Positions 3,488 through 19,856 of a DNA stretch of 64,000 nucleotides are shown piece after piece (positions within the stretch are counted from its first letter, which is position 1; each line of letters begins with the position of its first letter). The stretch covers positions 24,559-88,558 of the forward strand of contig DAOULX010000024.1 of assembly GCA_034414775.1 (NCBI GenBank). The letters run 5' to 3'. Position numbers and translations under genes: made by a program. This DNA comes from Dehalococcoidales bacterium. Lineage in GTDB: Bacteria; Chloroflexota; Dehalococcoidia; Dehalococcoidales; RBG-16-60-22. Under the pieces are notes generated by a model. The model did no database searches, was not told the DNA's origin, and saw only the letters and a list, made by a program, of their open reading frames with translations.

Positions 3488-4489
3488 TTACCCGGTGAGC
3501 TCCCAGAAGCTCCGCAGGCTGCTGAAATCCACCATGCCGCTCTCGGCGACGTTTTCTACCTGGATTCCCGCCTCGACGGCGGCCGCCACGGGATTCAATC
3601 CCCCTAGCTGAATGAGCCCGACACGGTTCAGGGCTACCGGTACCTGGCAGAGTGGCTCGCTGGTCTGGCCGATGGCATAAAGACCCTTGATACCCGCCTC
3701 CCTCATCATGGCCGCCTTTTTCTCGACGACCTCACGGGCGGGGGCCGGGATGGTGCGGAAGGCGCCGAGGATTTTCCCGGTGCCGGTTCGCGCCGCCTGC
3801 CCGACGCTGGTCATCTTGGCCTGGATGAACTGCTCCGATGGGTCCGTAGAAGTACCGGCATACTCGGTGATAGCCACAAAGCGCTTTGGGATTGAGTCCT
3901 TAATTTCCAGCACACCGCCGAAACGGAACTCCGTGGGCACCCCGGCCTTGAGCAGGACCCCGTTGATGGTAGCGCCGCAGACCGTGGCGAATCCGACCTT
4001 GCCAGCGGGGACGACGACCGCGCCGAGTTTCTCTCCTTCGGCCGCCGTCGCCACTAGATCGCTGACACAGATGCCCGCTTTAAAGACTTCACCCATGGCG
4101 GTAATAGCCTTCTTAAAATCACCCAGGTCGAAGAGCGAGGTGTTGATGGCAAGCTGGCCGGTACGTCTCTCGGGTTTGAAGGTGGTCAGATAGGCCAGTA
4201 GCTCAAGCTTGTCCCGGACGAAGCCCAGCTGCTGCGGGGCCAGAGCTTCCTTGACCTCCTGCCTTCCTTTGGGGGTAATCATACGGCCGTCGCGGCCGCC
4301 CGGCTGGGTGAAGCCGCGCTCGTCGGCGATTTTAAGGTGGTACCTGACCGCCCGCTGCCCGAGGAACACGCCATCCTCTTCGAGCTTGCGGGCGATGGTG
4401 ATGGAGCCCAGCGGCTCGGAGGACTCACTCAACACTTTGAGAATGGCGATCAGCTTGTTTTCGGCGTCGGTGCCGACGGGTTGGTCCAT
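3488..4489 (-). CDS. nrpR: NrpR-family nitrogen repressor (winged HTH plus NrpR regulatory domain)
   Basis: N-terminal AILKVL..EPLGS..IARKL..RAVRYHLK..DERGFT wHTH; TVCGATINGVLL and GGLNPVAA in the regulatory domain; last gene of the nitrogen cluster. Confidence 0.88.
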   Translation of the reverse strand: MDQPVGTDAENKLIAILKVLSESSEPLGSITIARKLEEDGVFLGQRAVRYHLKIADERGFTQPGGRDGRMITPKGRQEVKEALAPQQLGFVRDKLELLAYLTTFKPERRTGQLAINTSLFDLGDFKKAITAMGEVFKAGICVSDLVATAAEGEKLGAVVVPAGKVGFATVCGATINGVLLKAGVPTEFRFGGVLEIKDSIPKRFVAITEYAGTSTDPSEQFIQAKMTSVGQAARTGTGKILGAFRTIPAPAREVVEKKAAMMREAGIKGLYAIGQTSEPLCQVPVALNRVGLIQLGGLNPVAAAVEAGIQVENVAESGMVDFSSLRSFWELTG

Positions 4490-4494
4490 CTTTT

Positions 4495-6252
4495 TCAGTC
4501 CCGGTTAAAACGGTTGGTGATCGGCAGCCGCCTATCCCGCCCGAAGGCCCGGGGGGTAATCTTGATACCGGGGGGCGCCTGACGCCGCTTATATTCACTG
4601 GTATCCACCAGCCTAGCCGCCCGGTGGGCCGCTTTTTCATCCATTCCCAGGGCTATAATCTGGGCGATGCTTTTGTCTTCTTCAACGTAGGCGGTAAGAA
4701 TGGGATCAAGGACTTCGTAGGGTGGCAGGGTATCGCTGTCCTTTTGGTCCGGCCTGAGCTCAGCCGAAGGCGGCTTGGCCATAACCGAAGCCGGGATAAC
4801 ATCTTTGCCGGTCCGGTCATTGCAGCAGGCCGCCAGCTTATAGGCCATTGTCTTGGGGACATCCTTAATCACGGCGAAGCCCCCCGCCATATCCCCGTAG
4901 AGAGTGGTATAGCCGGTGGCGTACTCGCTCTTGTTGCCGGTGGTGAGCACCAGCCAGCCGAACTTGTTGGAAAGGGCCATCAGGAGGTTCCCCCGGATGC
5001 GGGCCTGGAGGTTCTCTTCGGCTACACCGGTCTCCGTTCCCTTGAACGGCTCCTCAAGTGTGTCCAGGTAGGCCTGGAAGACCTTTTCGATGGGAACAGT
5101 GAGAAACTCGATGCCCAGATTTTTGGCGACGAGCCCGGCATCTGAGAGACTGCCTTTTGAAGAGTAGCGGGACGGCATGGCCACACCGATAACGTTCGAT
5201 TTGCCCAGGGCGTCGACGGCAATGGCCGCTACCAGGCTGGAGTCCAGCCCGCCGGAAAGCCCGATGAGTACTTTTTTAAAGCCGTTCTTCCGGACGTAGT
5301 CCCGTGTACCCAGCACCAGGGCTTCGTATATCTCGGTGATGAGATCGCAGGTATCCAGGTTGCAGGCGGAGAGGGGAGGTTTGTCCGTGCTGAAAGGAGT
5401 TTCCGACACGATAATGCTGTCCGGCAGGCGCCATCCCTGCTCCTGCCGCTGCGCCAGCCCCTGCCGGAACCTGGGATCGTGCAGTCTGGTCCGGAAGACG
5501 TTTTCGACATCCAGGTCGGCCAGTATCAGGTCTTCCTCGAACCGCTTGCCCCGGGTAATCAGTTGTCCCTTCTCGTTGATGATAAGTCCGTTGCCGTCGA
5601 AGACCAGCTCGTCCTGCCCGCCGATCAGGTTATTGAAGGCGAAGATGGCCACGTTGTCCGCGGCGCGGGTGGCGATCATCCTTTCCCGGAAGCCCGTTTT
5701 GCCAAAGTTGTACGGCGAGGAGCTGATGTTGACGATGACCTCCGCCCCGGAATACGCCTGGTCGGTGGCCGGCCCGGACTCGTACCATATGTCCTCGCAG
5801 ATGTTGACGCCGACCTTGATACCGGCGATTACGTAAACAGGGCATTGGCCGCCCGCCCGGAAATAGCGGTTCTCGTCGAAGACGCCATAGTTGGGGAGGA
5901 ACACCTTGTGGTAGGTGCCGACGTGTTTCCCATCGTGGATAATGGCGGCAGCATTGTAGATGTCTTCGTTCGCGTCCACGAAGCCCACCACCAGGGTAAT
6001 ACCCTTCGAGGCCTGGACTATTTTGTCTAACGACCTCAGGTTCTCGGCGATGAACTGTGGCTTGAAAAGGAGGTCTTCGGGCGGGTAGCCGCAGACGGCT
6101 AGCTCCGGGAATGTCAGAAGGTCCACACCCGAAGACCTGGCTTCCTCGATTGATTTGATTATCCGGCGCTGGTTACCGGCAAAGTCACCCACCGTGGCAT
6201 TGATCTGCGCCATGCCGATGCGCAGCCGGCGGGTGTCCAGCCATTTTACCAT
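4495..6252 (-). CDS. nadE: Glutamine-dependent NAD+ synthetase
   Basis: Nitrilase domain (FPEL, YHK, ICED) plus synthetase domain (GLSGGLDS, ENLQARIRG, TGNKSE, PPSAEL). Confidence 0.97.
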   Translation of the reverse strand: MVKWLDTRRLRIGMAQINATVGDFAGNQRRIIKSIEEARSSGVDLLTFPELAVCGYPPEDLLFKPQFIAENLRSLDKIVQASKGITLVVGFVDANEDIYNAAAIIHDGKHVGTYHKVFLPNYGVFDENRYFRAGGQCPVYVIAGIKVGVNICEDIWYESGPATDQAYSGAEVIVNISSSPYNFGKTGFRERMIATRAADNVAIFAFNNLIGGQDELVFDGNGLIINEKGQLITRGKRFEEDLILADLDVENVFRTRLHDPRFRQGLAQRQEQGWRLPDSIIVSETPFSTDKPPLSACNLDTCDLITEIYEALVLGTRDYVRKNGFKKVLIGLSGGLDSSLVAAIAVDALGKSNVIGVAMPSRYSSKGSLSDAGLVAKNLGIEFLTVPIEKVFQAYLDTLEEPFKGTETGVAEENLQARIRGNLLMALSNKFGWLVLTTGNKSEYATGYTTLYGDMAGGFAVIKDVPKTMAYKLAACCNDRTGKDVIPASVMAKPPSAELRPDQKDSDTLPPYEVLDPILTAYVEEDKSIAQIIALGMDEKAAHRAARLVDTSEYKRRQAPPGIKITPRAFGRDRRLPITNRFNRD

Positions 6253-6270
6253 CGCGTTCCCGACCTCCAG

Positions 6271-7632
6271 TTAGAGTATCGGCAAATATCTCGAAAGTTC
6301 GTATTCGGTTACCTGCGTTCTGTAGTTGTCCCACTCGATCTTTTTATTTTGAATGAAGGCTTCGAAGACGTGGTCACCGAGTGCGTTACGCACAAGTTCG
6401 CTTTTCTCGGTGAGCTGGATGGCTTCGAGCAGGCTGGCGGGTAGCATGTCGATGCCCCGCTCCTTCCGCTCTTCGGCGGTCATCTCGTAGATGTTCTCCT
6501 CGATGGGATCCGGGACCTGGTAGCCTTTTTCGATTCCTTCCAGACCAGCGGCCAGCATGACGCTGAAGGCCAGGTACGGGTTACAGGCCGGATCCGGCGA
6601 GCGGAACTCGATGCGGGTGGCCTTTTCCCGGCCGGGCCGGTACTCGGGAACACGTACGAGGTCGGACCGGTTGCGCCTGGCCCAGGAAAGGTAGACCGGG
6701 GCCTCATAACCGGGTACCAGCCGTTTGTAGGAGTTGACCCACTGGTTGCAGACGCCGGTAATCTCCTGGGCGTGCTTGAGCAGACCGGCGATATAGCCCT
6801 TGGCCTCTTTGGAAAGGTTATAAGAATCGCTGGCGTCAAAGAAGGCGTTGTGTTCCCCTTTGAAGAGGGACTGGTGCACGTGCATCCCGCTGCCGTTGAT
6901 ACCGAAGACCGGTTTGGGCATGAAGGTGGCATAAACACCGTTTTTAAGCGCGACTTCTTTGACGACGAGGCGGTAGGTCATGACGCTATCGGCCATGGTC
7001 AGGGCGTCCGTATACCGCATGTCAATCTCGTGCTGGCTTTCGGCGACCTCGTGGTGGGCGTATTCAACGCCGATGCCCATCTTCTCCAGATGGATGACGG
7101 TATCACGCCGTAGCTCGATGGCAGCGTCCCGGGTCGTCAGATCGAAATAGCCGCCCCGGTCCAGTATCTCGGTGGTGTAGTTATTCGGGTGCTCCGGGTC
7201 AGACTTGAAATAGAAGTATTCCAGCTCCGGTCCGACGTAAAAGGTATAGCCCATATCGGCGGCCCTTTTCAGGTTGTTCTTGAGGACGTATCTCGGGTCA
7301 CCCTCGAAAGGCTGGCCGCCCGGTCTCAGGACATCGCAGAACATGCGGGCCGTGGCGCGGTGTTCCGGCGGGGTCCATGGCAGCAGACACCATGTGTCCG
7401 GGTCCGGCATGGCCACCATATCGCTCTCGTCGATGCGGGCGAACCCCTGGATGGAAGAGCCGTCAAATCCCATCCCTTCTTCCATGGCGCCTTCAAGCTC
7501 CTCCACGGTAATCGCAAAGCTCTTGAGGATACCGAGGATGTCCGTAAACCACAGCCAGATGAATTTAACATCATGCTCTTTAGCCATCTTGAGGACATAC
7601 TCTTTGCCTTCTTCTCTGCTCATCGTTGACAT
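6271..7632 (-). CDS. glnA: Glutamine synthetase type I
   Basis: FDGSSIQG, GPELEYF, HHEVA, PKP..GINGSGMHVH, RIEFRSPDPACNPY. Confidence 0.98.
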   Translation of the reverse strand: MSTMSREEGKEYVLKMAKEHDVKFIWLWFTDILGILKSFAITVEELEGAMEEGMGFDGSSIQGFARIDESDMVAMPDPDTWCLLPWTPPEHRATARMFCDVLRPGGQPFEGDPRYVLKNNLKRAADMGYTFYVGPELEYFYFKSDPEHPNNYTTEILDRGGYFDLTTRDAAIELRRDTVIHLEKMGIGVEYAHHEVAESQHEIDMRYTDALTMADSVMTYRLVVKEVALKNGVYATFMPKPVFGINGSGMHVHQSLFKGEHNAFFDASDSYNLSKEAKGYIAGLLKHAQEITGVCNQWVNSYKRLVPGYEAPVYLSWARRNRSDLVRVPEYRPGREKATRIEFRSPDPACNPYLAFSVMLAAGLEGIEKGYQVPDPIEENIYEMTAEERKERGIDMLPASLLEAIQLTEKSELVRNALGDHVFEAFIQNKKIEWDNYRTQVTEYELSRYLPIL

Positions 7633-7652
7633 TCAATTACCTCCTGTGCTTT

Positions 7653-7681
7653 ATTTTAACCTTTCTGCGGTCGTTTGTCAT
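7653..7681 (-). promoter_or_regulatory. Candidate sigma70 promoter for glnA-nadE-nrpR
   Basis: Minus strand ATGACA-17 nt-TAAAAT, followed by AGGAGG RBS. Confidence 0.55.
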
Positions 7682-7713
7682 CACTGTTTTACATCAAATC
7701 TCCCCTTACTGCT

Positions 7714-8052
7714 TTATATTGCGCTTTCATTTCGGTCACCGGTACGGACGCGCACCACACCTTCGACGGGGAGGATAAATATCTTGCCATCGCCCGCTTC
7801 GCCGGTGCGGGCGGTCCTGACGATGGCATCCACGGCCCCGGCCACGTCCTCATCGAGCAGGACCAGCTCTACCTTTATCTTGGGGAGCAGGTCAACCCGG
7901 TATTCACCTACCCGCCACTGGAGGAGTATGCCCTTCTGTTTCCCCCGGCCGCTCACTTCGCTGACGGTCATCCCGTAGTAGCTGTGCTCCTCCAGAGCCT
8001 TTTTAACAGCATCCAGTCTCTCTTCCCTTATAATCGCTTCTATCTTTTTCAT
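7714..8052 (-). CDS. glnK: P-II nitrogen regulatory protein (GlnK-type by linkage to amt)
   Basis: MKKIEAIIR, VSGRGKQKG, T-loop GEY (Tyr51), GDGKIF, VRVRTG. Confidence 0.95.
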   Translation of the reverse strand: MKKIEAIIREERLDAVKKALEEHSYYGMTVSEVSGRGKQKGILLQWRVGEYRVDLLPKIKVELVLLDEDVAGAVDAIVRTARTGEAGDGKIFILPVEGVVRVRTGDRNESAI

Positions 8053-9278
8053 CGTAACAGGCCTCCGTAAGCCCTTTCTCCATGCTGTGAGAGATCAAGT
8101 CCGACCGATTCTTCGGACGGAGTGACCCGCAGTCCAATAGTAATGTCAATTAGTTTGCCGAGCACCCAGGTAACGCCGAAGGCAAAGGCGGCCACGGTAA
8201 CGATGCCGATGAGCTGTGTCAGCACCTGGTTGAAGTTGCCCTCGAACAAACCCGCCGTTCCGCCGACGGCCGAGCTGGCGAAAATACCCGTGGCTAGGGC
8301 CCCCCAGATGCCTCCCATGCCGTGAACAGCGAACACGTCCAGGGAATCATCGAAGTGCAGCTTGTTTTTCATCAGGATGATACTATAGTAGCAGACCACG
8401 GCGACGATAATTCCGATGGGGATCGCGGCGATGGGGTGAACAAAACCGGCCGCCGGGGTAATGGCTACCAGGCCGGCGACCGCCCCGGTCACCGTCCCCA
8501 ACAGGCTGGGGCGGCGGGTTATCCAGCCGAGCATCATCCAGGTGAAGCCGGCGGAGGCGGCGGAAAGATTGGTGGCGACGAAAGCGTTGGCTGCCAGCCC
8601 GTCGGAGGTCAGGGCGCTGCCGGCATTAAAGCCGAACCATCCGAACCAGAGCAGACCGGCCCCCAGGGCCACCAGGGGGATATTGTTGGGCTCCATGATG
8701 TCCCCATCGAAACCGCGGCGCCTGCCCAGCACCAGGACGAGCGCCAGTGCCGAAACTCCGGCGTTAATATGGACAACGGCGCCGCCGGCGAAATCAAGGG
8801 CGCCAAGCCCGCCGAGCCAGCCGCCGCTTCCCCACACCCAGTGGCATATCGGGGAGTAAACAACGGTCATCCAGAGTGTGGAGAAAATCATCAGGGCGCT
8901 GAATTTGATGCGTTCCACCACAGCGCCGGTAATCAGGGCGACGGTAATAATAGCGAACATACCCTGGAAAGTCATGAAGGCCAGGTGAGGCACGGTGGAG
9001 GCGTAAGTATCCGAGGGCGCCATGCCGACACTGGCCAGGCCGATGAAATTGAGTCCGCCGATAAATCCGCCCTTGTCCGTACCGAAAGCCAGGCTGTAGC
9101 CCCAGAGCGCCCAGAGAGCGCCAATAAAGCCCATAACCGCGAAGCTCATCATCAGAGTGGATAGCAGGTTTTTACGCCGTACCATGCCACCGTAGAAAAG
9201 GGCTAGGCCGGGTGTCATCAGCAGCACCAGTGCCGAAGACATCAACAGCCAGGCAGTATCACCTGAATTTACGGGCAT
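8049..9278 (-). CDS. amtB: Ammonium transporter (copy 1)
   Basis: MTPGLALFYGG, FQGMFA, DFAGG..VHINAG, WFGWFGFNAGS, VFAVHG, GLDLSQHGE. Confidence 0.97.
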   Translation of the reverse strand: MPVNSGDTAWLLMSSALVLLMTPGLALFYGGMVRRKNLLSTLMMSFAVMGFIGALWALWGYSLAFGTDKGGFIGGLNFIGLASVGMAPSDTYASTVPHLAFMTFQGMFAIITVALITGAVVERIKFSALMIFSTLWMTVVYSPICHWVWGSGGWLGGLGALDFAGGAVVHINAGVSALALVLVLGRRRGFDGDIMEPNNIPLVALGAGLLWFGWFGFNAGSALTSDGLAANAFVATNLSAASAGFTWMMLGWITRRPSLLGTVTGAVAGLVAITPAAGFVHPIAAIPIGIIVAVVCYYSIILMKNKLHFDDSLDVFAVHGMGGIWGALATGIFASSAVGGTAGLFEGNFNQVLTQLIGIVTVAAFAFGVTWVLGKLIDITIGLRVTPSEESVGLDLSQHGERAYGGLLR

Positions 9279-9326
9279 TTCTCTTTCCTCCCGACTATTA
9301 CTTCATTGATATAATAGCCGGTTATT

Positions 9327-9364
9327 GTTTCCGGTAGATTACAGATGTGTTACAAACGTGTTAC
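9327..9364 (-). promoter_or_regulatory. Four-part direct-repeat operator (GlnR-box-like) upstream of amt copy 1
   Basis: Minus strand GTAAC-N6-GTAAC-N6-GTAAT-N6-GAAAC with exact 11-bp period, just upstream of a TATTAT -10 (9316-9311). Confidence 0.75.
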
Positions 9365-9382
9365 GTACGGGTGGAATCTTTG

Positions 9383-10615
9383 TTAACGGAGCAGGCCTCC
9401 GTAAGCCCTTTCTCCGTGCTGGGAAAGGTCCAGGCCGACCATTTCCTCGGACTGGCTGACCCGCAGGCCTAACGTCAACGCCACCAGCTTGCCCAGGACC
9501 AGCGTAATGACGAAGGCGTAAGCGCCTACAGCCGCCAGGCCAAGGGCCTGTCTGACGAGCTGCATCCCGCTCCCTGAGACAAGACCGGCGGCCCCGGCAG
9601 GGTTCACCGCTAAGCTGGCGAAGATGCCGACAAAAACCATCCCCAGGATGCCCCCAACCCCGTGCACGGCGAACACGTCCAGCGAGTCGTCAAAACCGAG
9701 CCGGGTCTTTAAGAACAGCATGGCATAATAGCAGACGCACGCCGCAACGACGCCGACGGGAATAGCGGCCAGCGGAGTAATATAGCCGGCGGCGGGGGTC
9801 ACCGTTGCCAGCCCGGCCACGGCCCCGGTGACCATACCGAGGATAGTGGGGCGCCGTTGCCGCCAGTTTAGCATCATCCAGGTAAAGGCGGCGGCCGCGG
9901 CGGCGGTATTGGTGGTGACGAAGGCGCTGGCCGCCAGGCCACCGGCGGTCAGGGCGCTGCCGGCGTTGAAGCCGAACCACCCGAACCAGAGCAGCCCCGC
10001 CCCGAGCACTACCAGCGGTATGTTGTTGGGCTCCATGGAATCCTGGGGAAAGCCGCGGCGCCTTCCCAGCAGTAATACCAGCGCCAGGGCCGAGACGCCG
10101 GCATTAATGTGAACCACTGCACCGCCAGCGAAGTCGAGGACACCCAGATTGGCCAGCCAGCCGCCGCCCCAGACCCAGTGGGCTATCGGGCTGTACACGA
10201 GGGTCAGCCATAATGCTGAAAAAACCAGCAAGGCACTGAACTTGACTCTTTCCACTATAGCGCCGGTGAAAAGGGCAACGGTAATGATAGCGAACATTGC
10301 CTGGAAAATCATGAAGGCCAGGTGCGGAACCGTGGAGGCATACAGCGGTGAGGGATCCTGGCCGACGTTCGTGAGGCCGATGAAGTTCAGTCCGCCGATG
10401 AAGCCGCCGTAGTCGGTGCCGAAAGCTAGGCTGTAACCGTAAATTACCCAGAGCAGGCCAACCAAACCCAGGCAGACGAAGCTCATCATCAGGGTTGACA
10501 GGAGGTTCTTGCGCCGCACCATACCCCCGTAGAAAAGCGCCACACCCGGCGTCATTAGCATCACCAGCGCCGATGATACGAGAATCCAGGCGGTATCCGC
10601 TGGGCTTATGGCCAT
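9383..10615 (-). CDS. amtB: Ammonium transporter (copy 2)
   Basis: Same Amt motifs as copy 1; tandem paralogue. Confidence 0.97.
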   Translation of the reverse strand: MAISPADTAWILVSSALVMLMTPGVALFYGGMVRRKNLLSTLMMSFVCLGLVGLLWVIYGYSLAFGTDYGGFIGGLNFIGLTNVGQDPSPLYASTVPHLAFMIFQAMFAIITVALFTGAIVERVKFSALLVFSALWLTLVYSPIAHWVWGGGWLANLGVLDFAGGAVVHINAGVSALALVLLLGRRRGFPQDSMEPNNIPLVVLGAGLLWFGWFGFNAGSALTAGGLAASAFVTTNTAAAAAAFTWMMLNWRQRRPTILGMVTGAVAGLATVTPAAGYITPLAAIPVGVVAACVCYYAMLFLKTRLGFDDSLDVFAVHGVGGILGMVFVGIFASLAVNPAGAAGLVSGSGMQLVRQALGLAAVGAYAFVITLVLGKLVALTLGLRVSQSEEMVGLDLSQHGERAYGGLLR

Positions 10616-10662: not shown

Positions 10663-10709
10663 TGTTACAAACGTGTTACAAAAACGGGGAAATGTTAAGA
10701 ACATGTTTC
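10663..10709 (-). promoter_or_regulatory. GlnR-box-like direct repeats upstream of amt copy 2
   Basis: TGTTACAAACGTGTTAC (10663-10679) is identical to 9348-9364; a second pair GAAAC-N6-TTAAC lies at 10709-10694 on the minus strand. Confidence 0.7.
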
Positions 10710-10748: not shown

Positions 10749-11423
10749 CTAGCTGTCTTTAACGAAGCGGTAGCCTATATTGCGGACCGTTTCAATATAG
10801 GTATGGCCAGCATCTTCAATCTTGCTGCGGAGCCGGCGCACATGGACATCCACGGTGCGGTCACCGCCGAAGTAATCATAGCCCCAGATACTGTTGAGCA
10901 GGGTCTGGCGGGTAAAAACGCGTCCCTTGTTGCTGGCCAGCAGCTTGAGAAGCTCGTACTCTTTGAAGGTGAGTTCGACGACGGCCCCGTTGACTACCAC
11001 CTCACAGGTAGCCAGGTCGATGAGGAGGCCCTTGCCTTTTATCTGCTCGGCGCTATCGGCTTCGCCGTTCTTCTTCAGGAGACGCTCTATCCTCAGGTTA
11101 AGCTCCCGAGGGTTGTAGGGAGTAACGACAAAGTCATCCACGTCAAGCCGGCTATCGATTCTGTTTACAATGTCGGACGGTATCAGCGCGATTACCGGCA
11201 GAGTCCGCCCCTTTCGGGCCTTACTGACGAGATCCCATATCTCCTCATCCGGCGCATCTTTGCCCAATTCAAGTATAAAGACATCCGGGCGGGTGTCAGC
11301 GATAGCTTCCCGGACACCATTGCTGTAAGAGGTGAAAGAGCAGGCCACGTTGTAGCGGGCCAGTCCTTCGCGGAGTACGGCCTTTGTTTCGCTGTCCTGA
11401 ACTACTGCCAGTGCGCGTACCAT
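10749..11423 (-). CDS. glnR: OmpR-family regulator with atypical receiver, GlnR-like
   Basis: C-terminus LTFKEYELL..GRVFTR..WGYDYFGGDRTVDVHVRRLR..ETVRNIGYRF closely resembles actinobacterial GlnR; receiver has Glu at the phospho-Asp site (PDVFILEL) and lacks the conserved Lys (VVTPY). Confidence 0.75.
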   Translation of the reverse strand: MVRALAVVQDSETKAVLREGLARYNVACSFTSYSNGVREAIADTRPDVFILELGKDAPDEEIWDLVSKARKGRTLPVIALIPSDIVNRIDSRLDVDDFVVTPYNPRELNLRIERLLKKNGEADSAEQIKGKGLLIDLATCEVVVNGAVVELTFKEYELLKLLASNKGRVFTRQTLLNSIWGYDYFGGDRTVDVHVRRLRSKIEDAGHTYIETVRNIGYRFVKDS

Positions 11424-11442: not shown

Positions 11443-12222
11443 TCAATAGGCGTAAAGTCGGCCGTAGGGGCGTAGGAAGCGGGGGTATAGTTTCAGGAAC
11501 TCCTGGTCCAGTATCTCATGAGCGTTATAGTTGAAAAGGGTAGCAAACTCACCGACCAGGTCCCTCAGGACGGTAAAGTCCTTTTCGTCCAGCTCTGCGA
11601 CGCCTACCTCTTTTCCCAGCTGGTAATCCGCAAAGCTGCCCCTCAGGTAGATAATGCCGCCGTGCATGCCCGTCCCGATGAACCGGGCACGGTGCTTTGG
11701 GTCTTTCCCAAGGGTGAGTCCCAGGAGCACCAGGATACCCCCGGCCATGTACTCCCCGACGAAGTCCTGGGCGGTCCCGCCGACGACGACCACCGGCTTC
11801 TTGCTACGGTACTCTTTCATGTGGATGCCGGCCCGGTAGCCGACGTCCTCGCGGATGAGGATGCGGCCGCCGCGCGCCGACAGGCCGACCGTGTCCCCGG
11901 CGTGGCCGTGGACAACAATCTCTCCCTCGTTCATGGTGTTACCGCAACCGTCCTGGGCATTACCGTGGACGATAATCCTCGGACCGTTCATGAAGGCGCC
12001 GAGGTCATTGCCGGGCGTACCGAAAATATCAATCTCTACCGGTCTATCCAGGTCCGTGCCGATGTAGCGCTGGCCGTGGACGTTGCGTATCTCGATGCGG
12101 GGTGCCCCATCGGCGACGATCTCCCGGAGGCAGGTATTAAGGTCGCGATAATATACACCCGAGGCATCAATATTGACTGTCGCGCCCTGGTCTGTCCCGG
12201 TTTTTGTGGTGTTGGTGGCCAT
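11443..12222 (-). CDS. Glutamate synthase subunit, C-terminal GXGXG beta-helix domain (GltB domain 3)
   Basis: GQRYIG, GTPGNDLGAFM, GNAQDGCGNTM, GEYMAGG repeats; start at ATG 12222. Confidence 0.9.
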   Translation of the reverse strand: MATNTTKTGTDQGATVNIDASGVYYRDLNTCLREIVADGAPRIEIRNVHGQRYIGTDLDRPVEIDIFGTPGNDLGAFMNGPRIIVHGNAQDGCGNTMNEGEIVVHGHAGDTVGLSARGGRILIREDVGYRAGIHMKEYRSKKPVVVVGGTAQDFVGEYMAGGILVLLGLTLGKDPKHRARFIGTGMHGGIIYLRGSFADYQLGKEVGVAELDEKDFTVLRDLVGEFATLFNYNAHEILDQEFLKLYPRFLRPYGRLYAY

Positions 12223-12224
12223 CT

Positions 12225-13730
12225 TTATCTCCCTGCCATGCGTACACCGAGAGTATCCAGCTCGGTATCGGAAAGTCCGACGCCCCTGAGGTGCAGCCGG
12301 TTGCCGCGCAGGCTCTCCAGGGCGTTGACCCCCAGCCCGCCCAGGATATCTTTCAGCTCTATGCTCCAGCCGCGGAGCAGGTTGGCTGCCCGGCGTGACC
12401 CGATATCCGGGTTGATGCGCTTGGTGAGGCGCAGGTCCGAGGTGCAGATGCCCCAGGCGCACTTGCCGGTGTGGCACTGCTGGCAGACGTGGCAGCCGAG
12501 TGAAATAAGAGCAGCCGTGCCTATATACACGGCGTCGGCGCCGAGGGCCATCGCCTTGGCCACGTCGCCGGCGCTGCGGATCCCGCCGGAAACGACGACG
12601 GACGCCTGATTGCGGATACCTTCCTCTCTGAGGCGGGTATCAACTGAGGCCAGCGCCATCTCAATGGGAATGCCGACATTATCGCGGATGACCTTGGGTG
12701 CGGCGCCGGTGGCCCCGCGCAGGCCGTCCAGCACGACCATATCGGCCCCGCCCCGCACGATGCCACTGGCGATGGCGGCGGCGTTATGCACGGCGGCAAT
12801 CTTGACCGATATCGGCTTGGTGTAGTTGGTCGCCTCCTTGAGGGCATAGATGAGCTGGGCCAGGTCTTCGATGGAGTAGATATCATGTTGCGGCGCCGGG
12901 GAAAGGGCGTCCGTCCCTTCGGGGATCATGCGCGTGAGGGATACCTCGGCGCTGACCTTCTCGCCAGGGAGGTGCCCACCGATGCCCGGCTTGGCCCCCT
13001 GGCCGATTTTTATCTCGACAATGCGGCCGGCGTCCAGGTACTCGGCGTGGACGCCGAAACGCCCCGAGGCCACCTGGACGATAGTGTTGTTACCGTACTT
13101 ATAAAGGCTGGGGTGCAGCCCGCCCTCACCGGTGTTCCACAGGGTGCCCATCTCCGTGGCCGCCCGCGCCAGGGACTCCTGGACGTTGCGGCTTACCGCC
13201 CCGTAGGACATGGCGGCGAACATTATAGGCACGTTCAGCTTGACCAGCGGGGTCATTTTGGTCTTCAGCTTGCCGGTGGCGGGGTCGATTTCTATCTTGT
13301 CCGGCCGGCGACCCAGGTAAGTGGTCAGCTCCATCGGCTCCCGGAGGGGGTCGATGGATGGATTGGTCACCTGGCTGGCGTTAAGGAGAAGGTGGTCCCA
13401 GTAGATGCGCTGCGTTTTATCATCGCCCATGCTGGTCAGCAGCACGCCGCCGGTCTCCGCCTGCTTGGTGATGTCCTCGATGACGTCCGGGCGCCAGTTG
13501 AAGTTGCCCCTGACGTCCGGCGGATTGTAGGAAACCGTCAGGGCGTGCGTCGGGCAGAAGACGACGCACCGCTGGCAACCGACACAGTTTTCTTCGTGGC
13601 TTTTAATGACGTCTTCTTCGGCGTCGTATTCCTGGGCCCCGAAGCTGCACTGGTTGACACAGACCTGGCACCGGATGCAGCGATCTTCGTCCCTGTTTAT
13701 CTTAAATTTTGGTGCGATATACGTTTTCAT
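12225..13730 (-). CDS. Glutamate synthase FMN-binding subunit with N-terminal ferredoxin domain (archaeal-type GltB domain 2)
   Basis: CIRCQVC/CVGCQRC, AMSYGA, NTGEGG, QVASGRFG, EIKIGQGAKPG.GG.LPG.KV, CHVCQQCHTGKC. Confidence 0.95.
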   Translation of the reverse strand: MKTYIAPKFKINRDEDRCIRCQVCVNQCSFGAQEYDAEEDVIKSHEENCVGCQRCVVFCPTHALTVSYNPPDVRGNFNWRPDVIEDITKQAETGGVLLTSMGDDKTQRIYWDHLLLNASQVTNPSIDPLREPMELTTYLGRRPDKIEIDPATGKLKTKMTPLVKLNVPIMFAAMSYGAVSRNVQESLARAATEMGTLWNTGEGGLHPSLYKYGNNTIVQVASGRFGVHAEYLDAGRIVEIKIGQGAKPGIGGHLPGEKVSAEVSLTRMIPEGTDALSPAPQHDIYSIEDLAQLIYALKEATNYTKPISVKIAAVHNAAAIASGIVRGGADMVVLDGLRGATGAAPKVIRDNVGIPIEMALASVDTRLREEGIRNQASVVVSGGIRSAGDVAKAMALGADAVYIGTAALISLGCHVCQQCHTGKCAWGICTSDLRLTKRINPDIGSRRAANLLRGWSIELKDILGGLGVNALESLRGNRLHLRGVGLSDTELDTLGVRMAGR

Positions 13731-13758
13731 GGTTCCCTCAGTTTTCCCGGCACGGCAG

Positions 13759-14889
13759 CTATCCCGCCGCGGCTTTCTCTCCGGCGGGTACCTTGGTTTT
13801 TAGCCGGCCTATGACCGGCTCGCCGCCGGTAGGTATCCAGGCCTTGTCAAGATCGGGGGATATGAGACGAATGGCGGCCTCCTCCGAGGACAGGTATAGC
13901 ATGTCCCCCTTCTCCCCGACGGTCAGCGGGCGCAGGCGGATGCGGTCCGTCAGGCCGATCATCTCCCCGGTGTGGGCGATGACAACGGCGAACGGCCCGT
14001 TGAGGAGCAGGCTGCCGTAGACCTGACGCAGCGCCATGGCAAGCTGCTTCTCGTCCTCCGGCATGCGCTCGATATCGTCCCAGAAAGGAGCGGCCAGCAC
14101 TTTGGCGGCGATCTCCAGTGGAAGTTCATGCCGGCGCATCAGCAGGTCGATGGCGTAAGCGATGACCTCGGTATCCGTCTGCATGGTGCACAGGTAGCCG
14201 AACTGCTCCAGGTAGCGCCGGTTGATGCCGTAGGACGATATCTCGCCGTTGTGAACGACCGTCCAGTCGAGGATGGAGAACGGGTGCGCCCCGCCCCACC
14301 AGGCCACGGTGTTGGTCGGGAAGCGGCCGTGGGCCGTCCACAGGTAGCCCTGGTACTGCTCCAGGCGGAAGTATTCGGCAAGCTCCTCGGGATAGCCGAC
14401 GCCTTTAAAAACGGCCATGTCCTTACCGCTGGAAAAGACGAAGCTGTCGTCCGGGCTGGTATTGATTTCCATAACCCTGGCCATCACGTAGTCGTCCGCG
14501 GTCTGGGTTTCCGGCAGGCCTTCCGGTACGTCGACGAAGTAGCGCCATACCAGCGGCGGATTCTTGATGACTGCCGTAGGCCGCGTGGGTACCTCTTCCT
14601 GCCAGACGACGCTGAAGGACCGGCGCAGGAATTCTTCGGTGTCCCGCTTGTCGTCATCGTCCAGGAACATAAGGTGTATGGCATAATGTTCGGCGTGCTC
14701 CGGGTAGAGGCCGTAGACGGCGAAACCCCCGCCGAGGCCGTTGCCGCGGTCGTGCATATTGGCGATGGCCTTGATGACACTCTCGCCGGAGAACCTCCGG
14801 CCGGAGGTGTCCATGGCCCCGAAAATGGAGCACGCGTCGATTACCTTATCGTCGTTCCAGGTATTATTTATCTTTTCGAGGTTTTTCAT
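13759..14889 (-). CDS. Glutamate synthase glutamine amidotransferase subunit (class II GATase, GltB domain 1)
   Basis: DACSIFG (catalytic Cys after a 19-aa leader), HDRGNGLGGG, HGRFPTN, VHNGEI, DRIRLRP. Confidence 0.92.
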   Translation of the reverse strand: MKNLEKINNTWNDDKVIDACSIFGAMDTSGRRFSGESVIKAIANMHDRGNGLGGGFAVYGLYPEHAEHYAIHLMFLDDDDKRDTEEFLRRSFSVVWQEEVPTRPTAVIKNPPLVWRYFVDVPEGLPETQTADDYVMARVMEINTSPDDSFVFSSGKDMAVFKGVGYPEELAEYFRLEQYQGYLWTAHGRFPTNTVAWWGGAHPFSILDWTVVHNGEISSYGINRRYLEQFGYLCTMQTDTEVIAYAIDLLMRRHELPLEIAAKVLAAPFWDDIERMPEDEKQLAMALRQVYGSLLLNGPFAVVIAHTGEMIGLTDRIRLRPLTVGEKGDMLYLSSEEAAIRLISPDLDKAWIPTGGEPVIGRLKTKVPAGEKAAAG

Positions 14890-14910
14890 TTTTCTTCCAT
14901 CGCGTAATTA

Positions 14911-15002
14911 TCATCCTGAGCGAAGCGAAGGATCTCGGGGTGGTGGGGCTTATTACCGCCCCTCTCCGAGATTCTTCAGTCGCTGTGCTCCTTCAGAATG
15001 AC
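14911..15002. repeat. REP-like palindromic repeat, family A
   Basis: tcatcctgagcgaagcgaaggatct...gagattcttcagtcgctgtgctccttcagaatgac. Confidence 0.85.
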
Positions 15003-15012
15003 ATTATTGTAA

Positions 15013-16362
15013 TTAGTCTGCCCCCAACTCCTCCTCCGGTTCTTCCGGGGCGCCGACGGCCACAGGGACGATATTGCCATCATGACCGGCCAGCCGGTGC
15101 CGCCAGGTTGATTCCGGTACGGAGGCCAGGCCGAAATCGGCGGCGACCAGGGACTCCTTGAATCCGCTGACGTCCACGCCATCCTTCATCAGATTATAGA
15201 TGATGCCTGATTTCTCAATGTCCCCGGCGAAGACCAGTCCCGCCAGCTTCCCGTCCCTGACGAGTACCTTGCGGTAGTTACCATCGGACCTGTTGACCAG
15301 GGTCTCGTAGGAGCTATCCGGAGGTACGGTCAGGCCGGCCGAGACAATGTGCACCCCGAAGTATTTCATGGCGTTCATGGCCGTTCCGCCGGCGTACTCT
15401 TCTTTCCCGCCGGCCATATTCAGTCCGGCGGTCCTTCCCCCTTCGCAGGCGTTGGGCCAGATGGGAGTGAGCCGGTTCTCCCCGATCACGAAGTCGTAGG
15501 CCTCGGAAACGTCACCACAGGCGTAGACATCTCGCACGGAGGTCTCCATGCTCCGGTTGACCAGGATTCCCCGGTTGACCTTGAGGCCGCTCCCTTCGAT
15601 AGCGTCAAGCCGCGACCTCACGCCGATGGCCACGATGACCATCTCGGCGGGTAAGATGCGCCCGTCATCGAGAGTGACGCCGCTGACCTCGCCGGGCAGA
15701 TAGCTGTTAATCTTCGAGGACGTATGGTCGGTGATGATTTTGATTCCAGCCTCTATTAGCGCTTCGGCTTCCAGGTTTGAGGTCTCTTCGTCGAGGATAG
15801 TGTTCAGGATGCGGTCTTTCATCTCGACGATAGTGACCTCGACGCCGCGTCTGACCAGGGCCTCGGTGACACTGACGCCGATGAGGCCGCCGCCGATGAC
15901 CACCGCCCGCACCCCCCGGTGGAGTCCTTTGAGAAACTCATTGATAGCCTTGGCGTCGTCGAGCTTGTTGAAAGTAAAGACTCCCTTTTGAGTGACTCCT
16001 TCCAGCTCGGGGACAATGGGTGTGCCGCCGGTGGCCAGCAGGAGCTTTTCATAGGCCGGCACACTGCCTCCGGCCAGCTTGACGGTATGCCCGGCGGTAT
16101 CAATTTGGGTAACCGGCTCCCCGAGGGCGGTTTGAATCCCGTTCGTTTCGTAGAAATCAAGCTGGCGGTAGACCATCTTCTCGATCGGTCCGGGATTGGC
16201 CAGATATTCGGAGATAAGCGGCCGTGAATAAGCCGGATAAGGCTCATCCGAGACGATGGTAATCGAGCCTTCCCGGTCGATTTCACGGATGGCCTCGGCC
16301 GCGCCGATACCGCCCGCCGAGTTTCCGATGATGAGATATTTAATTTTCTTAGTAGCCGCCAT
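15013..16362 (-). CDS. NAD(P)/FAD-dependent oxidoreductase (NADH oxidase/NirB-N-like)
   Basis: IIGNSAGG, YSRPLI, LLLATG, VIGGGLIG, VYACGD; start at ATG 16362. Confidence 0.9.
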   Translation of the reverse strand: MAATKKIKYLIIGNSAGGIGAAEAIREIDREGSITIVSDEPYPAYSRPLISEYLANPGPIEKMVYRQLDFYETNGIQTALGEPVTQIDTAGHTVKLAGGSVPAYEKLLLATGGTPIVPELEGVTQKGVFTFNKLDDAKAINEFLKGLHRGVRAVVIGGGLIGVSVTEALVRRGVEVTIVEMKDRILNTILDEETSNLEAEALIEAGIKIITDHTSSKINSYLPGEVSGVTLDDGRILPAEMVIVAIGVRSRLDAIEGSGLKVNRGILVNRSMETSVRDVYACGDVSEAYDFVIGENRLTPIWPNACEGGRTAGLNMAGGKEEYAGGTAMNAMKYFGVHIVSAGLTVPPDSSYETLVNRSDGNYRKVLVRDGKLAGLVFAGDIEKSGIIYNLMKDGVDVSGFKESLVAADFGLASVPESTWRHRLAGHDGNIVPVAVGAPEEPEEELGAD

Positions 16363-16456
16363 GATATTACCGCCTGGTGTGGTTCGCGTTTCTGACAAGA
16401 GCAAGTACAATTAACGATTCGTTCCCGGTTTGGCCGGACCGGGTGTTTTATATTAT

Positions 16457-16825
16457 TTAGTTATCCACCGTCACTTCGACGATGTTCTCCCGGGCGATGG
16501 CCGTTTCCCCACCGTTTTTCCTGACGAACACGTGCATCAGCCCCAGTATCTCGTACTGGCCGTTCTTCAGGATGGTGGTATCCCACCTGACCGGAAAGTT
16601 CTGGGATTTATCTTCCGACTCCCCAATCAAAATCCAGGTATCCTCGCCCTTGGCCCGGAAGTACCACGGATTAACAATCCTGACTATCGGACCATCCAGT
16701 TTTAATTCCGCCAGTTCCTGGCGTAGCAGGCCTTCATCCAGTTCCTCACGGAGTTGGATGGCCCCGGAGTAGGTCTTGGTGACGTTGGAAGGTACCAGGT
16801 AATGTGGCCCCCAGTTATGTGACAT
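16457..16825 (-). CDS. Hypothetical protein (122 aa) inside the glutamate synthase operon
   Basis: GGAGG RBS, co-oriented with neighbours, no recognised motif. Confidence 0.75.
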   Translation of the reverse strand: MSHNWGPHYLVPSNVTKTYSGAIQLREELDEGLLRQELAELKLDGPIVRIVNPWYFRAKGEDTWILIGESEDKSQNFPVRWDTTILKNGQYEILGLMHVFVRKNGGETAIARENIVEVTVDN

Positions 16826-16861: not shown

Positions 16862-17347
16862 TTACCGGGTCGGGACGGCGGTGCGATCTTCAGGATTCTT
16901 GCTTTCATCCGGTACTTCGGCGTAGATTAGTGCCTCGTTGGGGCAGTTGGCGACGCATACCGGTATCTCCTCATCCTGGCAAAGGTCACATTTGACCATC
17001 TTCTTCTGGGCCGGGTCGAGCTTCGGGACGCCCAGCGGGCAGGCGAGGGAACAGGTGCCACATCCGATGCAGCGGTCTTCGTCTACATTTACCAGGGAAG
17101 TGACGGGATCACGGGAGAGGGCGCCGGTCAGGCAGGCCCGGATGCACGCGGCATCGGCACAGTGCTGGCAACGCACCGAAAGGGAAACGACACCGTTTTC
17201 ATCGACCCTCAGCCTGGAGATGGGGCGGGGGGTCTCTTTTTTATGGGCCTTGACCAGGTCTTTGGACCGGGAGTGTTTCAGCCGGCAATAGACCTCGCAG
17301 AGGCGGCAGCCGATACATACCTGGTCGTTAACGATAACCTGTTTCAT
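16862..17347 (-). CDS. 4x[4Fe-4S] ferredoxin-like protein (CooF/HydN-like)
   Basis: CIGCRLC, CQHCADAAC..C, CIGCGTC..CP, CDLC..C..CP; start at ATG 17347. Confidence 0.92.
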   Translation of the reverse strand: MKQVIVNDQVCIGCRLCEVYCRLKHSRSKDLVKAHKKETPRPISRLRVDENGVVSLSVRCQHCADAACIRACLTGALSRDPVTSLVNVDEDRCIGCGTCSLACPLGVPKLDPAQKKMVKCDLCQDEEIPVCVANCPNEALIYAEVPDESKNPEDRTAVPTR

Positions 17348-17372: not shown

Positions 17373-17396
17373 AATGCGGCAAACGTTTGCCGCATT
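17373..17396. promoter_or_regulatory. Perfect 24-bp palindrome, candidate repressor operator
   Basis: AATGCGGCAAAC|GTTTGCCGCATT, overlapping the predicted transcription start of the glutamate synthase operon. Confidence 0.7.
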
Positions 17397-17400
17397 TATC

Positions 17401-17429
17401 ATAATAACATGACAGAAGGATTTTGTCAA
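17401..17429 (-). promoter_or_regulatory. sigma70 promoter of the glutamate synthase operon
   Basis: TTGACA (17429-17424), 17 nt, then TG-T-TATTAT extended -10 (17409-17401). Confidence 0.75.
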
Positions 17430-17818
17430 TAACGCGGATTTTGAGGGTTTTTTCACATGGTGCCGCCTATCTCTTTTCAACCGCATTATAGGCAGGAGGA
17501 CATTATTAATGCAAATGGTCCCCATAAGGGATTTTATTACATTTTTCAGGTAAAATCGTCTACCTCCATGGATTAGGGGATTCCTCAATCAACTCTGCGG
17601 GTAAATAATGCGGAGGGATTTATATCTTGATTTACAGGTAGGCGAAGTTTCCAATATTAACGAAATATTTAGACGCTTCAAGGTTACATTTATGATTTGT
17701 TTACCGGTGTGGAGATAAGATTCACTTTGGATACGACCATCAGCCGGTGGGTTTAAACGGCTGAAATGATCCTGAAGAGAGCAGGAAACCGGAAAATATA
17801 TACACGGGGCTTGATGCT

Positions 17819-18622
17819 GTGAAAAGAGTAGTCGTCAGGCGGGTTACCCGGCCGGGGGCAATCTCCCGGTACCGGCAACCCGATGGTGGAATGCCGGAAG
17901 GGATTTCTATCAAACAATTTGATCCCACTATGCTTGAACTCGGTGATCTTAGTGCCCCCTGCCAGGAAAAAGAGGCCATTACCGCTGTCTTTGACCTGAC
18001 CGGCTTTACGATGTTCTGCAATCAGGTGGATGCTTACCTGGGGATTCCCCGCTTCCTTTCCGATTTCCTGGACTGGATCTTTACCAGTATTAAGATACGG
18101 ATGACGGCTAAAGAAGCCGGCGGCCGTAATGCATTGTGGGCGGAGATTCCCTTGATGGTGAAGTTCCTGGGTGATGGTATCCTTATCCTCTGGAACGCCC
18201 GTCGCATGTCCGAAGACCAAATTTGCCGTATCGTGACCAGCCTTTACGATATTACCCGTGCTTACCAGCGTGACTTTTATCCCCGCATAAGTATGGTTGT
18301 CAACAAACCTCCTGGTATTCTCCGGTGCGGTATGGCCCGCGGCAAGGTCTTCAGTGTAGGTGGGGGCAGAGATTACGTCGGCCACTGTGTTAATCACGCT
18401 ACCCGGCTTTCCCATCTTGGCCTGTCGTTCTGTTTCCCACACCGCGGTTTTCAGGTACGAGAATATATGCCACCGAAATACCGCCCTATATTTGTGCCCA
18501 AGGCGGTCTCCATTCGCGGAGTCGGTGATAACGAGCTGGTGTGGGTAGTAAGGGAGGAGTTCGACCACATGCCACTTGAAAATAAAGCTATGTTTCGAAA
18601 TCCAGCTAATATAGGAGTATAG
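17819..18622 (+). CDS. Stand-alone class III nucleotide (adenylate-type) cyclase
   Basis: VFDLTGFT, VKFLGDG, DYVGHCVNHATRL (metal Asp x2, Lys/Asp specificity pair, N-x3-R); start uncertain (GTG 17819 or a later ATG). Confidence 0.75.
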   Translation: MKRVVVRRVTRPGAISRYRQPDGGMPEGISIKQFDPTMLELGDLSAPCQEKEAITAVFDLTGFTMFCNQVDAYLGIPRFLSDFLDWIFTSIKIRMTAKEAGGRNALWAEIPLMVKFLGDGILILWNARRMSEDQICRIVTSLYDITRAYQRDFYPRISMVVNKPPGILRCGMARGKVFSVGGGRDYVGHCVNHATRLSHLGLSFCFPHRGFQVREYMPPKYRPIFVPKAVSIRGVGDNELVWVVREEFDHMPLENKAMFRNPANIGV

Positions 18623-18671
18623 AACGCACCGACGAACAAGTGGAAATGGTTTGAGAAATGAGGAAAAGCCT

Positions 18672-19814
18672 ATGATGACAGTTGAAGAGAAATCTCCCAA
18701 GGCTCCAGCGATTGCCGGGCGTATCGAGAGGGAAAACAGGACAAGACTGGAGCTAGTCTATGAAGTCAGCAAAAAGATAGGTTCGGTGCCGCGGGTGACC
18801 CAGATGCTGGAGCATGTCATCAAAATGACCCAGCAAACTTTGGGGGCCTCGGCGGCCTCTATTCTCCTGTTCCGTAACAACGACCAAGAATTATATTTCG
18901 AAGTGGCTTCCGGCCCGGTAAGTAAAGCTCTACGGCAGGTTAAGCTGAATACCCAGTATGGTATCGCCGGTCAGGTGGCGCGGACCGGCAAGCCTATCAT
19001 CGTCAATGATGCCTGCCGCAGTCCTAATTTCCACAAGATGATTGATGACACCACCGGCTTTGACACTAAGTCACTGATATGCGCCCCCCTTGCCACTCCG
19101 CACAAGATTCTGGGCGTCATCGAGGTGCTTAATAAACGGGACGGGACCGAGTTCGGCGATCAGGACCTGGAGGCTGTGATTTCGGTGGCGAATACCGCGG
19201 CGATGGCCATTGAAAACACCCGCCTGCACCAATCTGTTTCCGAGGCGTACACCGGGACGATAAAAGCACTCGCGGCGGCCATTGATGCTAAAGATCCCTA
19301 TACCCGCGGCCATTCCCAGCGGGTCATGGAATACTCGATGCTTACCGGTGGCTATCTTTCTATGGATCGCGATGATATGGAAACCCTGGAGTTTGCGGCC
19401 ATTCTTCACGATGTGGGTAAAATCGCCGTTGATTCTGAGATCCTGAACAAGCCGGCGGCTTTAAACGAAGCAGAATGGGAGAGGATACATGAGCATCCCG
19501 TCATCGGGGCCAACATCCTGAGGAGCGTACCCTTCCTCGAGCGGGCCAGCGAACTGGTGCTTTGTCATCACGAGAGATTTAATGGTCAGGGATACCCCAA
19601 CGGATTGAAGGGCGAAGACATTCCCCTCGGTGCCAGGATCATCGCCGTGGCTGACGCCTTCGATACCATGACCACAGACCGTTCTTACCGGCCAGCTATG
19701 CCTGTCGAACAGGCTGTCAAGGAGCTCAATAGCTGCTCGGGTGGCCAGTTCTGCCCTGAAGCCGTTAAGGGATTCGTGTCCGGCTTACGCCTGCATACCA
19801 ATAAATACCAATAA
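18672..19814 (+). CDS. GAF plus HD-GYP domain phosphodiesterase
   Basis: GAF (GIAGQVARTG, SLICAPL, GVIEVLNK); KDPYTRGHSQRV, LHDVGK, HHERFNGQGYP, ADAFDTMT. Confidence 0.92.
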   Translation: MMTVEEKSPKAPAIAGRIERENRTRLELVYEVSKKIGSVPRVTQMLEHVIKMTQQTLGASAASILLFRNNDQELYFEVASGPVSKALRQVKLNTQYGIAGQVARTGKPIIVNDACRSPNFHKMIDDTTGFDTKSLICAPLATPHKILGVIEVLNKRDGTEFGDQDLEAVISVANTAAMAIENTRLHQSVSEAYTGTIKALAAAIDAKDPYTRGHSQRVMEYSMLTGGYLSMDRDDMETLEFAAILHDVGKIAVDSEILNKPAALNEAEWERIHEHPVIGANILRSVPFLERASELVLCHHERFNGQGYPNGLKGEDIPLGARIIAVADAFDTMTTDRSYRPAMPVEQAVKELNSCSGGQFCPEAVKGFVSGLRLHTNKYQ

Positions 19815-19856
19815 ACAATACTATACTATAGCCTCCGGACGGGGAGGTATTAGAAA

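Follow-up and report, generated by a model that had tools for sequence, protein, structure and literature searches.

A conserved palindrome at the predicted start of a split glutamate synthase operon is a probable NrpR operator in Dehalococcoidia

The window analyzed here, a 64,000-nt stretch of a Dehalococcoidales metagenome bin (2.25 Mb, 76 contigs, 54.6% G+C), contains a cluster of nitrogen genes that runs from a split, archaeal-type glutamate synthase operon to a gene for an NrpR-type protein (Table 1). Behind its first gene, which encodes a ferredoxin-domain protein, the operon comprises a 122-aa ORF without a Pfam match, a pyridine-nucleotide oxidoreductase, a class-II glutamine amidotransferase domain (GATase_2), an FMN glutamate-synthase domain with Fer4, and a GXGXG domain. 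Intergenic gaps measure 0-123 nt within the operon and 0-133 nt across the whole cluster down to nrpR, and no terminator signal above background was detected inside the cluster. The OmpR-family gene, separated by 19 nt from the last glutamate-synthase gene, probably shares the operon promoter and its transcript; that promoter is predicted to be NrpR-controlled. In the following block the nadE product is a glutamine-dependent NAD synthetase, and the matrix scan described below found no operator-like site belonging to the block itself. The nrpR1 product, which ends the cluster, matches PF01995 (8e-74) and PF08461 (2e-18), both above cut-offs; its regulatory domain matches PDB 3NEK (MJ0159) at 1.4e-19, and close relatives of the protein are labelled as Dehalococcoidales/Dehalococcoidia metagenome bins.

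Table 1. Coordinates of the genes and predicted signals around the palindrome, numbered from the first position of the window.
Feature	Coordinates	Strand	Basis or remark
nrpR1, 333 aa, candidate repressor	3488..4489	-	HTH_12 winged helix and one NrpR regulatory domain (NRD)
amtB, amtB, glnK, glnA, nadE	4495..10615	-	Pfam, ORFs; co-directional
OmpR-family regulator, DNA-binding domain alone recognizable	10749..11423	-	Pfam Trans_reg_C only
Remaining split archaeal-type glutamate synthase operon	11443..16825	-	Pfam matches
4Fe-4S dicluster ferredoxin-domain protein, 161 aa, first operon gene	16862..17347	-	Pfam Fer4_11, Fer4_7
Predicted NrpR operator AATGCGGCAAACGTTTGCCGCATT	17373..17396	.	Palindrome; matrix score 33.2 bits; conserved in 30 orthologous promoters
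Extended -10, TGtTATTAT	17401..17408	-	TATTAT at 17406-17401; palindrome 4 nt downstream
-35 hexamer TTGACA	17424..17429	-	17-nt spacer to -10
Extra exact ATAATGCGG copy, status uncertain	17481..17489	-	Exact 9-mer recurrence
Extra exact ATAATGCGG copy, status uncertain	17605..17613	+	Exact 9-mer recurrence

Upstream of the first amtB gene (10615), the minus strand at 10663-10709 carries TGTAACA-N4-TGTAACA direct repeats with 11-bp spacing (10680-10674 and 10669-10663), preceded by GAAAC and TTAAC words that are likewise 11 bp apart. Judged by sequence, the OmpR-family gene and these repeats look like a GlnR-type activator with its boxes. Divergently from the operon promoter, the plus strand at 17819-20627 encodes a conserved 267-aa ORF (no Pfam match; an orthologue lies in the same place in G005), a GAF and HD-GYP-type protein, and a metallo-beta-lactamase/class-II phosphodiesterase-like protein; these three neighbours of the nitrogen cluster may belong together in cyclic-nucleotide signalling. 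A formate-dehydrogenase-like molybdopterin enzyme at 20890-23715 on the same strand is split by an in-frame TGA (22033-22035, context CARL-TGA-HS), probably a selenocysteine codon and not the mark of a broken gene.

The intergenic region before the ferredoxin gene contains AATGCGGCAAACGTTTGCCGCATT, a perfect 24-bp palindrome that is read on the minus strand as 17396-17373 and has the core GGCA-N6-TGCC, in extended form CGGCAA-N4-TTGCCG. The minus-strand order is TTGACA, a 17-nt spacer ending in TG, TATTAT, GATA, AATGCGGCAAACGTTTGCCGCATT, 25 nt, and the ATG at 17347, with the left CGG of the palindrome 8 nt after the -10. This strong sigma-70-type promoter matches the consensus at 11 of 12 positions, has the additional TG, and gave the top score in the 15 kb scanned; the transcription start at the palindrome is a predicted position. 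A preliminary description of the locus had already reported a perfect 24-bp palindrome with the core cGGCA-N6-TGCCg, set 4 nt behind a TTGACA-17-TATTAT promoter; the sequence check bore out the palindrome, the coordinates and letters of the core proved correct, and the minus-strand layout agrees with the promoter and its offset.

Among the perfect palindromes of the genome, AATGCGGCAAACGTTTGCCGCATT ranks second in length, and by simple arithmetic (N/4^12) about 0.13 palindromes of at least 24 bp are expected per genome, or about 0.004 per window. The longest is a 28-bp palindrome, GCCTCGTCGCCTTCGAAGGCGACGAGGC, at contig C38:69461-69488. Shuffling the window left zero matches to the central 20-mer at up to 3 mismatches. 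A repeat element was ruled out, as the palindrome is unique in the genome within 5 mismatches, and so was an intrinsic terminator, as neither arm is followed by a T run and no gene converges on the site; the terminator scan does not flag it either.

The exact core CGGCAA-N4-TTGCCG occurs twice in the genome, compared with 0.18 occurrences expected. The second copy is located at contig C43:29477-29492, with 9 nt between it and the ATG of another nrpR gene (nrpR2), and directly follows a TTGACA-18-TATATT promoter. The nrpR2 product (338 aa, HTH_12 and NRD) is 47% identical to NrpR1, and the gene stands alone behind a histidine-kinase/response-regulator pair, with a candidate operator of its own. 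To avoid circularity, a weight matrix was built from 17 sites, all from other genomes, and scanned over the source genome. The window site scored highest (Table 1), followed by the nrpR2 site with 26.6 bits, whereas the next best match reached 16.9 bits and the maximum of the reversed-genome control was 16.0 bits. Since these two are the only outliers, the genome holds exactly two candidate operators of this kind. Some 50 bp upstream of the nrpR2 promoter, right after the histidine-kinase/OmpR-regulator pair, is a further perfect palindrome of 18 bp, AGTTACAATATTGTAACT (contig C43:29542-29559); the GTAAC words of this region resemble those before amtB. The order kinase, regulator, operator, nrpR recurs in G028 (locus L005).

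Conservation was then assessed at orthologous promoters. Orthologues of the 161-aa ferredoxin protein were identified in 31 of 41 relatives, nearly all with the site upstream; altogether, 30 genomes from many families have the site ahead of the orthologous ferredoxin-led operon, and it is found in other orders of the class as well. These 30 orthologous sites give the consensus AT(G/A)CGGnAA-N4-TTnCCG(C/T)AT, in which CGG and CCG are invariant, AA/TT is conserved at about 93%, and the central four bases are free. The layout of the promoter is fixed: the -35 TTGACA is perfect in 27 of the 30 promoters, the left CGG is situated 29-31 nt downstream of the -35 in 21 of 29, and across the orthologous promoters it sits 6-9 nt after the -10, which is the expected start site. 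The third core base, C in the window's GGCA, is C, T or A across the 30 sites, with no pairing constraint; because A is among the bases accepted there, some orthologous sites are exact instances of the published GGAA-N6-TTCC word, for example CGGAAACCGTTTTCCG. A CCG(C/T)AT word follows many orthologous operators at a distance of 7 bp (loci L023, L025, L033, L011, and L012), as in TTGCCGCATACCGTAT; paired with a CGG of the central spacer, it would form a second, overlapping operator offset by 7 bp. The window site has no such overlapping operator, since its spacer is ACGT.

Among 121 genomes of the order, the relaxed, flank-anchored pattern TRCGGNAANNNNTTNCCGYA retrieved 36 sites, compared with 1 for the reversed control. 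The exact CGGCAA-N4-TTGCCG gave a much less clean result, with a modest excess (18 versus 10 for the control), because most lineages carry T or A at the fourth base. Although the genome contains one perfect palindrome of greater length, the low number expected by chance, the deep conservation of both sequence and position, and the excess of 36 over 1 effectively refute the reading of AATGCGGCAAACGTTTGCCGCATT as a chance palindrome without function, to which we assign a negligible probability.

The upstream regions of 39 nrpR genes of relatives, 19 of the nrpR2 type and 20 of the nrpR1 type, were examined for the site. In eight of the 19 nrpR2-type genes, a site scoring 14 bits or more lies no farther than 50 nt from the start, and several further genes carry GG(A/T)AA-N4-TTTCC variants. 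Counting the source genome and G028 (exact core), at least 10 genomes have the site on an nrpR2-type gene. No such site precedes any of the 20 nrpR1-type genes, located behind nadE or glnA, where the scores peak at 5.3 bits. Two genomes (G002 and G012) encode an nrpR1-type gene only, yet retain the operon site; thus, either NrpR paralog can account for it.

To relate the motif to the presence of nrpR at the class level, a sample of 301 Dehalococcoidia genomes of at least 85% completeness was used, 110 with nrpR and 191 without. The strict motif was detected in 23 of the 110 nrpR-positive genomes versus 0 of the 191 nrpR-negative ones (Fisher p = 1.8e-11, with no correction for phylogeny), whereas the reversed control pattern showed no association (3/110 and 16/191, respectively). 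The motif-bearing genomes span at least 12 families, and 23 of 23 have nrpR, compared with 110 of 301 overall. Persistence of the palindrome in genomes lacking nrpR had been named in the preliminary description as the observation that would tell against an NrpR operator; this comparison was run, and the motif was absent from every nrpR-less genome of the sample. In the first set of relatives, genomes without nrpR also lacked the orthologous operon. The single motif-bearing genome of the order-level sample without an intact nrpR is G067, which keeps the first 33 nt (11 codons) of the gene after glnA, with the break 170 nt from a 100-N scaffold gap. As its nrpR is cut beside this gap, G067 appears nrpR-negative; it was rejected as a counter-example, since faulty assembly or very recent loss of the gene accounts for it, and was counted as uninformative. 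The segment G067:C1:268522-268975 (locus L125) belongs to a nominally single contig containing 100-N scaffold gaps.

Within the order, the site also marks other genes, always just after a -35/-10 pair: glutamate dehydrogenase (gdh) and an operon for a class-I (HisH/SNO-like) glutamine amidotransferase. It further precedes a HisF-like gene, an FlpD/MTHFR_C pair, a PPDK_N-domain protein in two genomes, and an FAD oxidase adjoining amtB-glnK; most of these genes are plausibly nitrogen-linked. In several families (loci L018/L041, L130-L134, L059, L061, and L071), a HisH/SNO-like class-I amidotransferase gene comes directly after the glutamate-synthase operon's ferredoxin gene or, alternatively, heads an operator-bearing operon of its own together with an FlpD-like protein and a GltB-like FMN domain. 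This arrangement hints that the split glutamate synthase may have the amidotransferase as an alternative glutaminase partner.

The 9-mer ATAATGCGG has 30 exact copies genome-wide, three of them within 243 bp at this promoter. The preliminary description had pointed to recurring half-sites near 17480 and 17603; the exact copies are real, but an auxiliary half-site role for them is unsupported. They score below 12 bits with the operator matrix, no partner half-site was found for them, and the corresponding region of eight close relatives lacks them. A TATAAT-like element may be all that the copy at 17481 represents.

The site always lies just downstream of the -10 and so is always transcribed, and the selected feature might accordingly be sought in the mRNA, as a 5' hairpin acting, for example, in mRNA stabilization or translational control, and not in a DNA site. 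The predicted fold is stable, with an energy of -18.4 kcal/mol (z = -4), 86.7% of the cells in the 30 aligned sites pair, and columns 4/21 covary (A..T in 16 sites, G..C in 10). However, any palindrome folds, and the covariation at 4/21 is equally expected if the preference of a homodimer shifts between lineages. The mid-stem pair 8/17 is unpaired in 10 of the 30 sites, and its 12 Watson-Crick pairs, compared with 10.8 expected, show no covariation. The sites on nrpR2-type genes are asymmetric (CGGnAA...TTTCCT), and a scan for riboswitches, leaders, and structured RNAs returned no Rfam match anywhere in the window at gathering thresholds. Conservation of the arms as sequence, with the central four bases free, is the signature of a protein-read DNA palindrome, and the word recurs at unrelated nitrogen genes and follows the distribution of a DNA-binding protein. 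We consider a hairpin highly improbable as the selected feature; a DNA operator and an RNA hairpin are not mutually exclusive.

A rare, conserved palindrome thus lies at the promoter start region, the same word stands on nrpR promoters, and it co-occurs strictly with nrpR. The site differs from the strict core GGAA/TTCC in reading GGCA/TGCC; it shares with NrpR operators the 4-bp cores 6 bp apart, the position at the promoter of nitrogen genes, and an nrpR gene in the same genome. The likeness to the methanogen GGAA-N6-TTCC drawn in the preliminary description, with the same geometry and one difference per half-site, holds, and because the third base is degenerate and the exact word occurs in some orthologues, the window site can be seen as a lineage variant of the canonical word. 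The proposal made there of a bacterial NrpR operator is supported by the site on the nrpR2 promoter, the conservation in 30 genomes, the degenerate third base, and the distribution over nrpR-positive and nrpR-negative genomes (23/110 versus 0/191). From this sequence evidence, the palindrome is very probably an operator for the NrpR-type repressor or repressors of this bacterium, NrpR1 (3488-4489) and/or NrpR2 (contig C43).

The assignment to NrpR is built on co-occurrence, autoregulatory placement, and likeness to the archaeal consensus, and a different dimeric transcription factor, co-inherited with nrpR and the nitrogen genes, might leave a similar record; the cluster does encode another regulator, the OmpR-type gene at 10749-11423. 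This regulator, however, has plausible direct-repeat boxes of its own before amtB, and OmpR-type proteins usually do not read palindromes. Moreover, at least 10 genomes have the site directly on an nrpR promoter, and it grades into the exact GGAA-N6-TTCC word and is absent from 191 of 191 nrpR-less genomes sampled; we regard another factor as an improbable reader of the site.

Taking the palindrome as an NrpR operator, we infer the binding of NrpR, repression rather than activation, a response to 2-oxoglutarate, the exact transcription start, and the extent of the operon. Under nitrogen sufficiency, when 2-oxoglutarate is low, an NrpR dimer or tetramer would occupy the site, as in the archaeal system (PMC4902934, PMC9765008), and would keep RNA polymerase from opening the promoter or escaping from it. 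The split glutamate-synthase operon would thereby be switched off, and with it the OmpR/GlnR-like regulator encoded at its end. Under nitrogen limitation, the rise in 2-oxoglutarate would release NrpR, while the second operator, on the nrpR2 promoter, would render nrpR2 autoregulated. Since the OmpR-type gene lies 19 nt downstream of the operon and GTAAC-type repeats precede amtB, derepression may also raise a second regulator for amtB-glnK-glnA-nadE-nrpR1; this cascade is one that we only infer.

We lean slightly towards a broader model, according to which, in Dehalococcoidia, an archaeal-type, 2-oxoglutarate-sensing NrpR would act as the master nitrogen repressor of sigma-70 promoters, with CGGnAA-N4-TTnCCG as its co-transferred operator. 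The top tier of a two-tier circuit would then be NrpR, which gates the glutamate-synthase operon and a GlnR-like orphan regulator, which in turn switches on amtB-glnK-glnA, with the second paralog autoregulated. If this is true, the repressor-operator pair works unchanged against archaeal and bacterial transcription machineries. An NrpR-type gene and a related operator on the predicted +1 of sigma-70 promoters are found across the class, including cultivated organohalide respirers (G033, G079, G280, and G380, probably Dehalococcoides and Dehalogenimonas); in G033, G280, G380, and G416 the site is present at the orthologous promoters. Confirmation would make this the first nitrogen regulon to be defined in these organisms and a natural example of a transcription factor that crossed between domains of life together with its operator; it would also yield a simple 2-oxoglutarate-responsive switch. 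The motif is also precise enough to serve in annotating nitrogen regulons in Dehalococcoidia metagenome bins.

Within the literature searched, experimental work on NrpR is confined to methanogenic archaea, where it blocks the archaeal transcription machinery, and no bacterial NrpR operator was found described there. The archaeal consensus is GGAAN6TTCC (PMC2723118, PMC4335013); NrpR operators precede nif, glnA, and glnK-amtB in Methanococcus maripaludis, the same motif lies upstream of glnA, nifH, pdxT, and amt in Methanobacterium formicicum (PMC4335013), and 2-oxoglutarate is the inducer of NrpR-controlled genes (PMC2723118, PMC4335013, PMC4902934). Like these operators, the site described here consists of inverted 4-bp cores 6 bp apart at the start region, here a predicted one, of nitrogen-assimilation genes, in a genome that encodes an NrpR with a winged helix and an NRD. 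Both sets include a glutamine amidotransferase gene, pdxT among the M. formicicum targets and a related one among the site-bearing genes here. In contrast to the methanogen systems, the host is a bacterium and the promoter is of the sigma-70 -35/-10 type rather than TATA/BRE, the third core base varies (C here), and conservation extends to an additional C/G and an AT(G/A) flank. The split glutamate-synthase operon is the main predicted target, with no link to nif in the window. Archaeal nrpR expression is not nitrogen-regulated (PMC9765008), whereas one nrpR paralog here appears to be autoregulated.

In domain composition, NrpR1 and NrpR2 (about 335 aa, HTH_12 and one NRD) resemble the single-NRD proteins M. 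jannaschii MJ0159 (PDB 3NEK) and Methanosarcina NrpRI. They differ from both in being bacterial and in their arrangement, one copy ending the nitrogen cluster and the other standing alone with its own candidate operator. The pair recalls the two-paralog NrpR arrangement of M. jannaschii that Lie and colleagues reportedly described in 2007. Classical repressor operators that overlap +1 include LacI O1 and the LexA boxes; as in these, the palindrome is located directly downstream of a sigma-70 -10, and steric blocking would be expected by analogy. Unlike LacI and LexA, NrpR belongs to an unrelated protein family, and its presumed effector logic, based on 2-oxoglutarate, is taken from archaeal NrpR. 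Finally, the OmpR-type regulator in the operon, which has no recognizable receiver domain, and the GTAAC-type repeats with 11-bp spacing before amtB resemble actinobacterial GlnR; this GlnR-like layer would be a second, separate layer of regulation, distinct from the palindrome.
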